Virus record (IMG/VR): IMGVR_UViG_3300024507_000487
Source: an uncultured virus (IMG/VR IMGVR_UViG_3300024507_000487)
Taxonomy: Duplodnaviria; Heunggongvirae; Uroviricota; Caudoviricetes
Length of the DNA: 20,000 nt
Direction: 5' to 3' (one strand)
Position 1 is the stretch's first letter. Each line of letters begins with the position of its first letter. A program made the translations under genes and the position numbers. The notes under the pieces are model-generated. The model made no database searches and had not been told where the DNA came from. It saw only the letters and a list, made by a program, of their open reading frames with translations. Of the stretch, positions 4,753 through 18,726 are shown in pieces.

Positions 4753-6033
4753 TTAAAAGATATCTAGAGGTTTTCCTTCTGTAATAGCCATGGGTCGTCC
4801 AATGTTGTCTCTAATTTGAGCAGATAGATCCATATCTAAAGCTTTATAAACAGTAGCATATACATCGCCTATTGAGCATGGCTTATCCTTAATGTCTAAA
4901 CCATCTTTGCTAGTAGAACCATAAGCTTGTCCACCCTTAATGGAACCTCCGCCTACTACTATAGACCAACATCTTGCCCAATGATCTCGTCCACCATTTT
5001 GATTAATCTTAGGTGTACGACCAAATTCGCCCATCCATAAAACTACAGTATCTTTCCAAAGACCAATATCGTTTAGTTCTTTTACAAGGTTTCCAAAACC
5101 TTTATCAAGCCGAGGGCCATTACCATTCCTAATAGTAGAAAAGATATTATTATGATTATCCCATCCGCCGAGATCCACTTGAACACAACTAACTCCCTTC
5201 TCAATTAATTTTCTTGCAAGAAGGCATCCCATGCCAAACTGATTCATCCTACCGCCATAAGCATCTATAGTCGCTTGGCTTTCGTTCTTTATTTCAAATA
5301 CAGTTCTAAGTGGCGAAATAGTTAGATCAAATGCTTTACCATATATAGAAGCATGTGATTGTGCGACATTACCTAAACTTTCTCTGTCTTTTGCACCTTT
5401 TACATGAGGCATTATCTTTGCAGCAAACTCATCTTCTATTCCGTAGAATAATCTCTGCCTTCTTCTAAGACGCTCTTCTTCATTGCCAATTTCTGATGGT
5501 GGCTTTATATTTTCTGGAGGAACGCCAGGATTTTGCACAACAAAAGGAGTGTACATTGCGCCAAGGAATCCTGGCCCAATGCGTTGTGCAGTTCCACCAA
5601 TTCCAATAAAATTAGGTAATGGCAACTCTTTAGAGCCAATCATAGAAGATACAACTGCGCCCATAGCTGGATATTGCACTACTGGGTTTGGTTGCTTGGC
5701 CGTATTCATTAAGAATGTGCCACGCTCATGACTGCCTTCATTAGTAACCAAAGATCTAATAGCCACCAAGTGTTTGAACTGTTCAGCAACTGTTGGCAAT
5801 ACCTCACTAATCTGCACTCCGTTTGCAGAAGTTTTGATCTGTTTAAAGTCTCCACCAGTTGATTCTCCTGTCTTCAAATCCCATAAATCCATATGACTTG
5901 GGCCACCACTCATCCAAAGCACAATGAGTCTTTTTCCCTTTTTCTTTATGGTTTCTTGCTGTGCATATAGATTAGATACTAATGCAAGAGAAGCAAATTC
6001 TGTTGTATGCTGTAAAAAGTGTCGCCTGTTCAT
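4753..6033 (-). CDS. DUF1501 domain protein with twin-arginine (Tat) signal
   Basis: MNRRHFL Tat motif; LWMSGGPSHMDLWD, GCLLARKLIEKGV, GGWDNH, GEFGRTPKIN, GRDHW are DUF1501 hallmarks. Confidence 0.92.
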   Translation of the reverse strand: MNRRHFLQHTTEFASLALVSNLYAQQETIKKKGKRLIVLWMSGGPSHMDLWDLKTGESTGGDFKQIKTSANGVQISEVLPTVAEQFKHLVAIRSLVTNEGSHERGTFLMNTAKQPNPVVQYPAMGAVVSSMIGSKELPLPNFIGIGGTAQRIGPGFLGAMYTPFVVQNPGVPPENIKPPSEIGNEEERLRRRQRLFYGIEDEFAAKIMPHVKGAKDRESLGNVAQSHASIYGKAFDLTISPLRTVFEIKNESQATIDAYGGRMNQFGMGCLLARKLIEKGVSCVQVDLGGWDNHNNIFSTIRNGNGPRLDKGFGNLVKELNDIGLWKDTVVLWMGEFGRTPKINQNGGRDHWARCWSIVVGGGSIKGGQAYGSTSKDGLDIKDKPCSIGDVYATVYKALDMDLSAQIRDNIGRPMAITEGKPLDIF

Positions 6034-6224
6034 TTTTTATCCCTCGTTGTATTGATAATTTCATTTCTCATAATTTTAAAATCTTTTGGAGCATTTATTT
6101 TTACTTTTGCTTTATTTATGCTTATCTTATCTGCAAGAAGTGTTATTACTATGTTTCCAGATGGAGTGAAAATAGTAAAAGACTCTCCAAAATTTCTTGT
6201 AAAAACTAAATTCCCTGTTTCCAT
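6030..6224 (-). CDS. csrA: Carbon storage regulator CsrA/RsmA family RNA-binding protein
   Basis: LVFTRNFGESFTI...KVKINAPKDFKIMRNEI matches the CsrA pattern LxLxRkxgEsixI...vrigIxAPxxvxIxRxEi; AGGAG RBS supports start at 6224. Confidence 0.85.
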   Translation of the reverse strand: METGNLVFTRNFGESFTIFTPSGNIVITLLADKISINKAKVKINAPKDFKIMRNEIINTTRDKK

Positions 6225-6238
6225 TTTATCTCCTATCT

Positions 6239-6301
6239 TGGTGGGCGGTTTGATCAACAAGATCACGCAACTTATCCCACCACGGTAAATTGCTACCGCC
6301 C
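6239..6301 (-). ncRNA. Putative tRNA-like structured RNA, copy 1 (63 nt)
   Basis: GGGCGGU/ACCGCCC 7-bp closing stem + A-CCA; internal hairpins GCAAUUUA/UAAGUUGC and UGAUC-UUGUU-GAUCA. Confidence 0.65.
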
Positions 6302-6305
6302 ATAA

Positions 6306-6524
6306 TTATTTGTTAATAGAATCCAATATAATTTTAATTGAATCAAGCTTAATGTTTAGTTCTTTTATTCTATTAGTAAGTTCCTTATTTTCATCTTTTA
6401 AGTTATTATTTACTATTTCAAAATCCTTGTTATCTATTTCTAGATCTTGCAACTTTGTTTTTAATATAGCTAAATTGATTTGATCTTCAGACTTTACAAA
6501 TATATTCTTAAGAAACTTGAACAT
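6306..6524 (-). CDS. Hypothetical coiled-coil protein
   Basis: 72 aa, heptad pattern, AGGAGG RBS. Confidence 0.7.
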   Translation of the reverse strand: MFKFLKNIFVKSEDQINLAILKTKLQDLEIDNKDFEIVNNNLKDENKELTNRIKELNIKLDSIKIILDSINK

Positions 6525-6554
6525 AAATCCTCCTTGAGTTAGGGTTATATTAGT

Positions 6555-6582
6555 TTATTCGACAATAACTACTTTTCATTTA
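6555..6582 (-). promoter_or_regulatory. Putative promoter TAAA-N17-CGAATAA
   Basis: Intergenic copy of the recurrent motif, about 30 nt upstream of ATG 6524. Confidence 0.65.
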
Positions 6583-6684
6583 GAACTTCTTCCATAGAGT
6601 ACATAATTAAAAAATAAATTATATACCAAATCAACAGTTCTATATAAGGTCTATATTCCATAGCGTATATAAATACGCCATATA

Positions 6685-7326
6685 TTAAAAGCCATTAGTC
6701 CAAATATAAGAACGAAAATCACCATACGCCCAAATAAGTTTAAATCCTTCTAGTTCTTTTTCGCACAATGGATATTGTACACCGCTGAGAGAAAGTTCTT
6801 TGTATACAACTTGTTCAAGAGACTCGCCATTTTCTAATTTATTTCTCCAAGTAATACGATTTAAGGCAGTACCAAGATAGCCACCATGAGGCATCATTTT
6901 TTCTAAAATTAAAAATGCTCCACCATTCTTACATTTGTGTTTAAGTTTTTCTATAAAGTCAGTTCTTTTACTTGGATGAATAAAGCACAATGCTAAAATA
7001 CTTGTTGCGAAAGAAAACTCTCTTATACATATATCTAGCATGTCGCCTATTATTAGACTTTGATAATCACCAATATAGTACGGTTCCATTTCTTGACATT
7101 TTTCAATAGCATAAAACTCAATATTTCTTTCTTTTATTTTATCTCTTAATGCTAATCCAACATTGCCTGTACTTGCCCCAAAATCATATACCACACTATC
7201 TGGTTCCATATATACAGATGCAATTTCTGGCAAGAAATGTCTTAAAAAATCTTCATGCCAAAATAATTGACCTTTAATGTGTTCATTAAAAGTTGGCGCT
7301 GCTTTTGCAAAATCAAACATGATCAA
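6685..7326 (-). CDS. CmoA-like SAM-dependent enzyme (carboxy-SAM synthase-related class I methyltransferase fold)
   Basis: FDF...F.EHI..QL, VYDFGASTG, LCFI...R, GGAFLILEK, KLENGES..QV..K..SLSGV align by eye with E. coli CmoA along the full length. Confidence 0.75.
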   Translation of the reverse strand: MIMFDFAKAAPTFNEHIKGQLFWHEDFLRHFLPEIASVYMEPDSVVYDFGASTGNVGLALRDKIKERNIEFYAIEKCQEMEPYYIGDYQSLIIGDMLDICIREFSFATSILALCFIHPSKRTDFIEKLKHKCKNGGAFLILEKMMPHGGYLGTALNRITWRNKLENGESLEQVVYKELSLSGVQYPLCEKELEGFKLIWAYGDFRSYIWTNGF

Positions 7327-8231
7327 TCCTTAATAGTTTCCTTATGATATTTATTTAAGCATTCCGCAATATATTTAACTGAAGGAACATGCATTCCACA
7401 ATATTTATACTTATCTGTATCTGAGGCATTAGTTAAATGCCAATCATCGGGAAAACCCATCAGTCTAAGTCTTTCTGTTGGCGTTACTCTTCGTATATTT
7501 CCTTTAGACACTACTAAATCTGTAAAAGATTTATAATCTCTTTTAGTTAATGTGGAGGATACTCCGCATTCATCAAATTGATCACTTCTTTGGCGAGTAA
7601 AGTAGGCAAAGGCTTGTTCCCTTTTTTCGCTCTGCTCAAAATACCACTTAAAGCTTTTTTTGACAGACTGTACTTTTCGTTCACATTCTGTTGTACTACG
7701 CTCTCCAAGTTGGAAGATATCGGCGTTGGCGGAGATTCCATCACGGACTCCGAGAATGTAAACTCTGCGTCTTCTTTGTGGTGTTCCGCAGAATTGTGCA
7801 TCAATGGTCGTATAAGTCGCATCGTACCCGATTTTGGCAAGGTCTGAGAGAATTGTGTTAAGCCCTCTTCTAAGGAGCATAAAGACATTTTCAATGACAC
7901 AATATTTTGGTCTGACTTCTGTGACTGCTCTAAAGAATTCTTTCCAGAGAATAGATCTTTTTCCATAAATACCGTCCTTTGTTTTACTTGCTATAGAAAT
8001 GTCTGTGCAAGGAAATCCGCCCACGATCACATCAAACTGATTTGATTGATATGTTATTTTTGTAACATCGCCAAAGTTTGGTATAGATGGAAAATTCTTT
8101 TTTAATACTTCGCTAGGATATTTGTCTATTTCTGCGTTGGCTGTTATTTCGTAATTACCAGCTTGTTGAAAAGCCAGAGAAAAACCACCAATACCAGCAA
8201 ACATATCATAAACTTTTAAAGTTTCTTCCAT
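7323..8231 (-). CDS. DNA (cytosine-5) methyltransferase family protein
   Basis: Motif I DMFAGIGG, IV GGFPC, VI ENV, VIII PQRRRRVY, IX-like RRVTPTERLRLMGFP; motif X lacks the canonical GN. Confidence 0.93.
   Translation of the reverse strand: MEETLKVYDMFAGIGGFSLAFQQAGNYEITANAEIDKYPSEVLKKNFPSIPNFGDVTKITYQSNQFDVIVGGFPCTDISIASKTKDGIYGKRSILWKEFFRAVTEVRPKYCVIENVFMLLRRGLNTILSDLAKIGYDATYTTIDAQFCGTPQRRRRVYILGVRDGISANADIFQLGERSTTECERKVQSVKKSFKWYFEQSEKREQAFAYFTRQRSDQFDECGVSSTLTKRDYKSFTDLVVSKGNIRRVTPTERLRLMGFPDDWHLTNASDTDKYKYCGMHVPSVKYIAECLNKYHKETIKD
7547..7966 (-). CDS. Nested alternative-frame ORF, putative second (beta-like) polypeptide of the methyltransferase
   Basis: 139 codons open inside the MTase gene; AAGGA 8 nt upstream of the ATG; C-terminal KYSLSKKALSGILSRAKKGNKPLP. 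Confidence 0.6.
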   Translation of the reverse strand: MEKDLFSGKNSLEQSQKSDQNIVSLKMSLCSLEEGLTQFSQTLPKSGTMRLIRPLMHNSAEHHKEDAEFTFSESVMESPPTPISSNLESVVQQNVNEKYSLSKKALSGILSRAKKGNKPLPTLLAKEVINLMNAEYPPH

Positions 8232-8244
8232 GATAATCCTTGTT

Positions 8245-8315
8245 TGGTGGGCGGTTTAGCCAACAAGGCTAATTAGTAGAAGTTTCCCTGCCTAGTGAAT
8301 CAACTACTACCGCCC
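8245..8315 (-). ncRNA. Putative tRNA-like structured RNA, copy 2 (71 nt)
   Basis: Same GGGCGGU/ACCGCCC-A-CCA frame; hairpins AGUAG/CUACU and UUAGCC-UUGUU-GGCUAA. Confidence 0.65.
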
Positions 8316-8324
8316 ATATATTTA

Positions 8325-8651
8325 CTATACTTCTTCAGAAAATTTTTCTAGAGTAACAATCTTTTTTTCACCACTTATAATAACTTTATTCTTTAATACA
8401 TCCCATGTTAATAATCCATCTACACTATCATAATTTTGAAAATCATATTTATATATCGGTTCTACTATGTATGATTTATCACTATAAACATCATCGCCCC
8501 AATCAACAACATAACTTTGATCTTGCATGATAATTACATTACTTATTATTGATATTTCTTTATTTTCATAAGAAAACATTACATATACTTTTGATATGTG
8601 AATGTCATTTAATCTTTTGAATAACTCACTTTTTGTCATCTGTTTTTCCAC
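8325..8651 (-). CDS. Hypothetical protein
   Basis: 108-aa ORF in operon-like run. Confidence 0.65.
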   Translation of the reverse strand: MEKQMTKSELFKRLNDIHISKVYVMFSYENKEISIISNVIIMQDQSYVVDWGDDVYSDKSYIVEPIYKYDFQNYDSVDGLLTWDVLKNKVIISGEKKIVTLEKFSEEV

Positions 8652-8949
8652 TTAATTTATGACAAAATGCTTCAACAATTTCTTTATACATGTTTTTATC
8701 CAAAATAGTCTTTAGCCTATAAACTTCTTTCAAAAGCTTTTGTATATCTTCTATAGAATTAACTAAAAATTTTAAGTCTTCTTCCGTAGATACATCTGCA
8801 ATCCATTCTCCATGATAAAAATATGCTCGCTCCTTACTTTCTGAATATATGCTTGTTTTTCCATTTTCAGAATACGAAGAAACCCAAGGACCAGGAGTTG
8901 CTCTGTATAATCTATTTTCTATTTCACGCAATTCTTTTTCTGACAACAT
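8626..8949 (-). CDS. Phage protein with ATPGPW motif (Ead/Ea22-like)
   Basis: ELREIE...RATPGPW...D..F....EDIQKLLKEVYRL. Confidence 0.65.
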   Translation of the reverse strand: MLSEKELREIENRLYRATPGPWVSSYSENGKTSIYSESKERAYFYHGEWIADVSTEEDLKFLVNSIEDIQKLLKEVYRLKTILDKNMYKEIVEAFCHKLSGKTDDKK

Positions 8950-9080
8950 GGCTTAATAAGCCCTTTCAATCTTCTTATTTCTGCAATAAGCTTGGTAACA
9001 TTTTCATTAGAAACCCAATTTCCATTATTGGATTGCATGTCTTTTTCAATCTCTTGAATAAATTCTTCTGTTACTTCCAT
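8919..9080 (-). CDS. Small hypothetical protein (53 aa; not in ORF track)
   Basis: Hand translation MEVTEEFIQEIEKD...KLIAEIRRLKG...; GAGGAG RBS; fills the gap between neighbours. Confidence 0.6.
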   Translation of the reverse strand: MEVTEEFIQEIEKDMQSNNGNWVSNENVTKLIAEIRRLKGLIKPCCQKKNCVK

Positions 9081-17221: not shown

Positions 17222-17294
17222 TAGGCGTGATGGGAGTCGAACCCATACTTGAAGGATTTTAAGTCCTTTGACTCTGCCATTGGTCTACACGCCC
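17222..17294 (-). tRNA. tRNA-Leu(UAA) with short variable loop; CCA not encoded
   Basis: GGGCGTG TA GACCAATGGCAGAGTC A AAGGA CTTAAAA TCCTT CAAGT ATGGG TTCGACT CCCAT CACGCCT A; anticodon at 17259-17261. Confidence 0.9.
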
Positions 17295-17853: not shown

Positions 17854-17927
17854 TATTATTTATCTCCGTTGATAAAGAATGTTTATTTAATGGGTCTGTT
17901 CGGATTTGAACCGAAAACCTAGCGATT

Positions 17928-18678
17928 CATGTTTGTGGGTATTTCTACCCTCCATGGACTATATCATTATCCCATAAGGATATCGGACGCTAGTGCGGTT
18001 ATTAAGAGGGCTTTACCTCTCCGCTAGTCTCTGCACCTTCCATTGGTGTACCAATGGCTTGGCTCAATGTTGATGGCATAATTCCATATTGCTTAGCCCA
18101 TTTTCTTATCGTATTGTCTGAAACACCATACTTTTTACCAATTTTTACAAAAGACATTTTTTCAATATCTTCTTTTAATTGATTTTTTTCAGGTCTATTA
18201 ACAATACGAGTTCCTAAAGATTGACAATCAATACCACAAAATTTTGATTGTTTATCTTGTAGTGTCCGAAAACAAATTTTGCAAAATTTAGGTTCATTAT
18301 GTGACATTTTCATTGAATTCATCCGATTCTTTCTGGCAGTTTCCAAACCAGAAGCACCTGAGTCTATCCAAGCGTGAAGTTTAGCGTGTTGGCTTCTTTC
18401 GAGAACTAATAGATTTTGATGTCTATTATCATCTCTTTTGCCATTTAAATGATGCACAACTTCTTCATCTTTTAAGTTACGACCAACACATTCTTCAGCA
18501 ACTACGATATGTTCATAAACATATCCTTCCCAATTGCTATTTTTCATAGCTCTTGAGTGTTCTGGCAAAAATATAAGTCTATAACCATTTAAGATTCTTA
18601 CATCGCTTTTCATGTTGTCTCCTTATAGTGTAATACTGTAATTATATTACACCATTTGAACCAAGAAGACAACCTCAG
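17928..18678 (-). mobile_element. Group I self-splicing intron (751 nt), Azoarcus tRNA-Ile-like core with an added P7.1
   Basis: 5' exon ends in U, intron ends in G. P1 CAU^CUGAG/CUCAGGUG; P2 UUCUGG/CCAGAA; P3 CGGAUG/CGUCCG; P4 UCAAUG/CAUUGA; GAGCCAAGC; AAGGUGCAGAGACUA; P7 GACUA/UAGUC; P9 GGGUA-GAAA-UACCC. Confidence 0.93.
18002..18613 (-). CDS. Intron-encoded HNH homing endonuclease with C-terminal Zn finger and HTH
   Basis: YVYEH.VVAE...VHHLNG.RDDNR.QNL....SQHAKLH (HNH); CKIC...CGIDC; SFVKIGKKYGVSDNTIRKW; AAGGAG RBS. Confidence 0.9.
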   Translation of the reverse strand: MKSDVRILNGYRLIFLPEHSRAMKNSNWEGYVYEHIVVAEECVGRNLKDEEVVHHLNGKRDDNRHQNLLVLERSQHAKLHAWIDSGASGLETARKNRMNSMKMSHNEPKFCKICFRTLQDKQSKFCGIDCQSLGTRIVNRPEKNQLKEDIEKMSFVKIGKKYGVSDNTIRKWAKQYGIMPSTLSQAIGTPMEGAETSGEVKPS

Positions 18679-18726
18679 ATGAGTCGCTTGCTCTAACCTA
18701 TTGAGCTACAGACCCTAATTTTATTA

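Follow-up and report, generated by a model that had tools for sequence, protein, structure and literature searches.

An RNA element present twice in a window of 20,000 nucleotides from an uncultured virus (IMG/VR IMGVR_UViG_3300024507_000487) is, as judged by comparison of homologous sequences, a three-way-junction RNA that is conserved in a family of large freshwater phages. An earlier reading of the window made from its letters alone (the sequence-only reading) had suggested such a junction, and homologues with different stem sequences do retain the pairing. The element lies between a stop codon and the ribosome binding site (RBS) of csrA at all 44 csrA loci examined. Among the functions put forward in the sequence-only reading, regulation in cis is the best supported, given the constant position of the element ahead of csrA; we consider it possible, and offer tentatively, that the element is a cis-acting translational operator in phage mRNA, with the phage CsrA itself as its most likely ligand.

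The two copies in the window

Copy 1 (6239-6301) and copy 2 (8245-8315) both lie on the minus strand, with the ends that the sequence-only reading had given them, and the predicted fold of each agrees with the 7-bp closing stem and two arms described there. Copy 1 folds at -28.9 kcal/mol (z -4.80, none of 200 shuffles as good) and copy 2 at -28.3 kcal/mol (z -3.53, 1 of 200 shuffles as good). Their parts are as follows; the CsrA consensus used for site comparison is ACARGGA (PMC7652899).

6243..6301, minus strand: copy 1 core, in the csrA leader (fold; covariance-model match of 58.2 bits; pair counts)
6295-6301 paired with 6243-6249, minus strand: copy 1 closing stem P1, 7 bp (fold), with the P2 arm and, stacked on P1, the P3 arm
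6276..6281, minus strand: copy 1 P2-loop word GGUGGG, a conserved word, followed by A, which yields a GGA 53 nt 5' of the start codon (alignment)
6256..6260, minus strand: copy 1 P3 loop, family pattern NNGUU (alignment)
6239..6242, minus strand: copy 1 ACCA tail, confined to both copies of this phage
8249..8315, minus strand: copy 2 core, in the methyltransferase leader (fold; covariance-model match)
8287-8292, minus strand: copy 2 loop word GGCAGG
8262-8266, minus strand: copy 2 P3 loop
8229..8248, minus strand: copy 2 ACCA tail and methyltransferase RBS, holding an ACAAGGA word that fits the CsrA consensus

As had been reported, each copy occupies the space between a stop codon and an RBS, copy 1 before csrA (PF02599) and copy 2 before a C5 methyltransferase gene (PF00145). 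Two of the structural details needed adjustment. The compensatory change in the P3 stem is real, with the stem now placed at 6 bp in copy 2 and at 5 bp plus a mismatch in copy 1. The UUGUU loop is present in both copies, but it is not invariant, since the family pattern in our alignment of nine distinct cores is NNGUU.

The search for known families that had been recommended, by Rfam and ARAGORN, matched neither copy; for Rfam this holds at the gathering score, for the whole window and the isolated copies alike. ARAGORN output in mitochondrial mode was judged to be noise, and a terminator scan found no terminator role for the element.

Conservation and distribution

The nine-core alignment defines a P1 of 7 bp, a P2 of 4-11 bp with a large loop, and a P3 of 6 bp with a 5-nt loop that sits directly on P1. 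In all nine cores the first two G-C pairs (hence the 5' GG) and a junction U-A pair are invariant, as are two loop motifs, GG..GG of P2 and GUU of P3. These letters are shared by two clades that stand about one substitution per site apart, the second of which was found by searching with DUF1501 and CsrA. Pairing is kept in 95.2% of the cells of the alignment, with two-sided changes at 10 of 20 pairs; none of 500 shuffles reached this level, slid controls paired at 32-43%, and RNAalifold returned the same fold. Three to four independent lineages underlie these pair counts, so that the shuffle counts overstate the support, and we regard the covariation support for the element as good but not deep. 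The sense strand folds better than the antisense strand in 10 of 10 cases.

Among the 44 csrA loci, whose records are redundant, 36 have full elements (8 distinct cores) and 8 have reduced forms without the first arm (4 distinct), which retain a long hairpin with the P3 loop. In a tree the reduced forms nest within the second clade, four of five grouping with moderate support and one being unplaced. Because the arm-less forms fall inside that clade, the first arm appears to have been lost in them, rather than gained elsewhere.

A covariance-model search, which had also been recommended, found exactly one copy in each of seven related virus records that hold csrA (G001 alone of these is complete, and the copy stood at csrA where this was checked) and three copies in G000, the window's own contig. 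The third of these precedes a second csrA of the contig and is without CCA. At 20 of 20 other C5 methyltransferase loci the model found no element before the gene. A loose loop pattern picked out 113 stretches in viral contigs; among the 80 that were scored, 13 reached at least 52 bits, the next best had 20 bits, and no element was seen outside this phage family. The element was not found in 5 partial relatives, nor in 151 genomes of the phylum of record G004, a search that had no positive control and a phylum that is probably not that of the host.

The phage record and the putative csrA operon

G000 is a 206-kb virus record; among its gene products are a terminase, DNA polymerase III alpha, a primase, a helicase and a sigma-70-type factor (L271:4557-5042). 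Its first 59 kb repeat at 149-206 kb, as a 57-kb region of about 70-80% identity with a period of 149 kb, and other records show the same doubling. Because the complete relative is 142 kb and the contig ends repeat at 70-80% identity, G000 is probably a chimera of two sister phages. If it is, the third copy of the element would be an orthologue, unlike the inserted copy 2. The presence of DUF1501 and CsrA leads us to presume a planctomycete host. CsrA is common in the planctomycete phylum (PMC13443453). Between 19 and 70 kb G000 also carries a large glycosyltransferase, methyltransferase, acetyltransferase and sugar-nucleotide block, together with a peptide deformylase and an arginyl-transferase-like domain.

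The genes around the two copies are:

6030..6224, minus strand: phage csrA gene, 64 aa (Pfam PF02599, E 2.6e-09; profile matches solved CsrA/RsmE chains)
6306..6524, minus strand: small coiled-coil-like ORF; a comparable ORF lies 5' of the element in all four mapped relatives
6555..6561, minus strand: promoter-like word CGAATAA (putative promoter), heading the unit of coiled-coil ORF, element, csrA and DUF1501
4753..6033, minus strand: DUF1501 gene directly 3' of csrA (PF07394, E 2.2e-92)
6685..8324, minus strand: inserted cassette of copy 2, the C5 methyltransferase gene (7323-8231) and a second ORF (6685-7326), missing at the matching site of the sister region

The CGAATAA word stands in the same place in L096, L081 and L092, and inexactly in L094. 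Because this word precedes the upstream small ORF, and no promoter-like word was seen immediately 5' of the element, we place the element inside a putative operon of small ORF, element, csrA and DUF1501. Its core ends 17-27 nt 5' of the start codon and the element fills the space from the stop codon to there. More widely, the plus strand of G000 has 50 occurrences of CGAATAA(G), frequently preceded by TAAAT, against 27 expected; many stand before RBSs, and they are densest at 138-148 kb. The DUF1501 gene is 69-73% identical to its second-clade counterparts; neither the csrA nor the DUF1501 gene had a match among named phages.

The copy before the methyltransferase gene is, on this comparison of regions, a one-off duplication that arrived with the inserted cassette, both junctions of which carry the same 8-letter word. 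A short perfect inverted repeat (6660-6680, minus strand) lies at the insertion point and is kept in the sister region. Within the methyltransferase gene, in another frame, is a 139-aa ORF (7547-7966, minus strand) that has the same open length in L096, L081 and L094, and which we presume to recall the split beta subunit or overlapping ORF of some C5 methyltransferases. In the second clade (L288-L305) the methyltransferase travels, in several gene contexts, with a 9-bp hairpin of its own that ends at the RBS.

The tRNA-like end

One suggestion of the sequence-only reading was a tRNA mimic or decoy; such an RNA would have acceptor, D-like and T-like arms but lack an anticodon arm, and would be charged or bound via its CCA end. 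The resemblance to tRNA (RF00005) and tRNA-like domains lies in a 7-bp stem with G1 and G2, stacked on a short arm, and in both window copies having U at -1 and ACCA; the first 8 letters of the first arm at L135 also match the D arm of the tRNA-Leu that the phage itself encodes, a likeness noticed post hoc. As a family trait the suggestion fails. Discriminator A and CCA occur in two of the nine distinct cores, and CCA at 6 of 44 csrA loci, all of them from one phage. In the second clade the acceptor sequence that had been likened to tRNA-Val is swapped for other sequence, and P1 is lengthened by 5-6 A-U pairs in place of the CCA tail. With CCA in only two of nine cores and this A-U extension in the second clade, tRNA mimicry cannot be the family function; the tRNA-like end is, as far as the aligned sequences indicate, a lineage-specific feature, and the element as a family is not a tRNA mimic. 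Unlike tRNA, the element has no anticodon arm and no T-loop consensus. A test for a tRNA or decayed tRNA gene gave no RF00005 match and no ARAGORN call, even at a lowered threshold, and showed two arms only, with a 5-nt NNGUU loop. Among 122 ORFs of at least 110 aa (two very long ORFs and shorter ones left out) there was no Ro60, tRNA-type nucleotidyltransferase or RNA ligase. We therefore hold a tRNA decoy to be highly improbable. The ACCA tail is identical in the two window copies while their arms have diverged, so that the tail may have a local role in this phage. A T-box-like reading, in which the loop word would read tRNA ends, was dropped, as copy 2 breaks it.

The two real tRNA genes of the window do not encode CCA, as had been stated: tRNA-Leu(UAA) at 17222-17294 and an intron-split tRNA at 17891-18715 (minus strand). 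The anticodon loop of the latter is broken by a 751-nt intron with an HNH endonuclease ORF (18002-18613). ARAGORN calls it His; we take the junction letters to fit a CAU anticodon with a group I intron better. The Rfam scan of the window did not flag this intron.

A possible CsrA-bound operator

A fixed site before an RNA-binding regulator, together with turnover of the stems and retention of the loop words, points to a protein-bound operator. As a leader structure in phage mRNA the element would act on translation of the gene behind it, and the kept unpaired loop words would be protein contacts. One face of a phage CsrA dimer would bind the GGA of the P2 loop and the other the Shine-Dalgarno GGA, and by bridging both the dimer would repress its own synthesis; copy 2, in this one phage, would put the inserted DNA methyltransferase under the same control. 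In 8 of 10 full leaders the loop GGA lies 44-51 nt 5' of the Shine-Dalgarno GGA. A CsrA dimer bridges two sites that lie 10-63 nt from each other, and in E. coli the protein represses translation of its own mRNA (PMC7652899). All of 39 phage CsrA proteins retain the residues matching L2, R6 and R44, the R44-matching arginine being needed for binding. The site ACAAGGA of the methyltransferase, found over 2 of 88 leaders of this phage segment, also speaks for a CsrA operator. A GGA overlaps the Shine-Dalgarno sequence in 10 of 10 leaders, which is weak evidence given that most such sequences are expected to have one.

Several observations run against a CsrA operator. All 39 proteins have F at the position that matches L4, a residue critical in E. 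coli. ACARGGA is commoner in the leaders of G001 (14 of 177). The loop context is UGGGA, as against the consensus ACARGGA, except in copy 2, and the predicted probability that the loop GGA is unpaired is just 0.10-0.52. L134 and L138 are without a loop GGA, and the 8 reduced loci are without the whole P2 arm yet have an intact CsrA. Furthermore, neither the invariance of the GUU loop nor the constant 7+6 bp geometry is accounted for by CsrA binding. The CsrA/RsmE-repressed leaders described in PMC7652899 (E. coli glgC and csrA, P. fluorescens hcnA) likewise combine an upstream loop GGA with a Shine-Dalgarno GGA, here 44-51 nt apart and before csrA. They differ from the phage element in that the latter has a three-way junction and a second conserved loop rather than a simple hairpin, a loop context off the consensus, and some members without a loop GGA.

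Alternative explanations

The closest architectural parallel of the element is the C4 antisense RNA of phages P1 and P7 (RF01695; PMC5320573, PMC11143913). C4 has three stems, is freed from a longer transcript by RNase P at its GG start, and blocks an RBS with two loops (PMC5320573). An RNA of this type, in which host RNase P would cleave the tRNA-shaped helix of P1 and P3 at its 5' GG and the two loops would pair beside and over a target RBS in the methyltransferase and csrA leaders, is an explanation that we regard as unlikely, while giving it some weight. The element shares with C4 the three stems, the 5' GG of P1, two displayed loops and a place inside a longer phage transcript, having no promoter word of its own; its stacked helix is of 7+6 bp. 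It lies before csrA, not an antirepressor gene, and has neither a match to Rfam c4 nor a conserved target-site pair, no conserved complement being present within 400 nt of 7 elements. The loops of copy 1 rank the methyltransferase leader first and the csrA leader third of 88 in this phage segment, and the homologous methyltransferase leader ranks third of 177 in G001, but shuffled loops do as well as the best target in 8 of 30 trials here and in 25 of 30 with the sister segment. In G001 the figure is 1 of 30, and there the top-scoring target is a different ORF. The P2-loop site of G001 lies in a terminator-like hairpin; of 18 other methyltransferase leaders, 9 have this hairpin, 8 do not, and in 1 it is cut off. 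A hexamer compatible with P3 occurs in 23 of the 177 G001 leaders. Such pairing would account for the kept CCCACCA as the target of the loop word, not as a tRNA end; the 5-6 A-U pairs added to P1 in the second clade are unlike a pre-tRNA. A fuller version, in which an anticodon-less tRNA-shaped RNA, unrelated to C4 in sequence, is cut from the phage operon by host RNase P, its loops pair with the csrA and DNA methyltransferase leaders, and CCCACCA is kept as both loop target and RNase P determinant, seems to us quite unlikely; if true, a lytic-type large phage would control a global translational regulator by means of an RNA switch. Assembled contigs from four river metatranscriptome runs, searched with 5400-9000, cover all of copy 2 in three runs and each end of copy 1 in two, among the matches listed. 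No contig joint among these skips copy 1 or copy 2; the contigs give no ends, strand or level, and the libraries may hold DNA.

We are also doubtful that the element is a structural spacer that determines how much csrA is expressed by way of mRNA stability, cleavage by a nuclease or coupling to the ribosome terminating upstream, where in the last case an opened P1 would free a strand masking the Shine-Dalgarno sequence. In keeping with such a role, the element takes up the stretch between the stop codon and a point 17-27 nt short of the start codon, and the reduced forms preserve a long hairpin with the P3 loop. However, a plain spacer needs no G-rich loop word, and this word is kept across both clades. 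When the 5' strand of P1 is blocked, the Shine-Dalgarno core is predicted to become less accessible in 8 of 9 leaders, but in most leaders the drop does not exceed that given by scrambled P1 pairs (2 to 25 of 40 controls as low). Very unlikely, in our view, are a small-molecule riboswitch with docking of both loops and a DNA-level recombination site that moves gene cassettes. All three observed loop substitutions fit wobble pairing between the loops, but the loop-loop duplexes, copy 2 excepted, are no better than neighbouring sequence. Copy 2 does begin the inserted cassette, with its repeated 8-letter word, but the absence of model matches at the 20 other methyltransferase loci and of any integrase family among the 122 ORFs scanned argues against a recombination site, and junctions that differ in length and sequence argue against both. 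Three candidate mechanisms were tried and none beat controls: pairing between the loops, a switch dependent on P1, and antisense targets in cis.

Relation to catalogued RNAs and significance

The supplementary tables of PMC10690425 list DNAVirus_1649, an uncharacterised candidate structured RNA with 48 sequences, 18 of them within 25 bases upstream of CsrA. Like our element it derives from IMG/VR, comes from tailed phages of fresh water and coast, and is found upstream of csrA; unlike it, the table row is listed as 100 nt and holds no discussion of structure or function. Compared by table description, not by alignment, DNAVirus_1649 is probably the same RNA. Our search of the mainly open-access literature gave no description of the element beyond this row, and nothing on the control of phage csrA genes. 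Such genes are known from genome surveys, and their role awaits loss-of-function tests (PMC7366521). The element is a genuine RNA motif that covaries, belongs to one phage family and goes with csrA; its function is undescribed, and it has probably been catalogued once, without comment.

A defined covarying RNA element is now linked to the phage csrA gene. Nature has supplied variants in which the loop GGA is lost, the arm deleted, or a copy moved to a methyltransferase, and with these the question of control can be put to a direct test, using a 60-nt RNA and a 64-aa protein.
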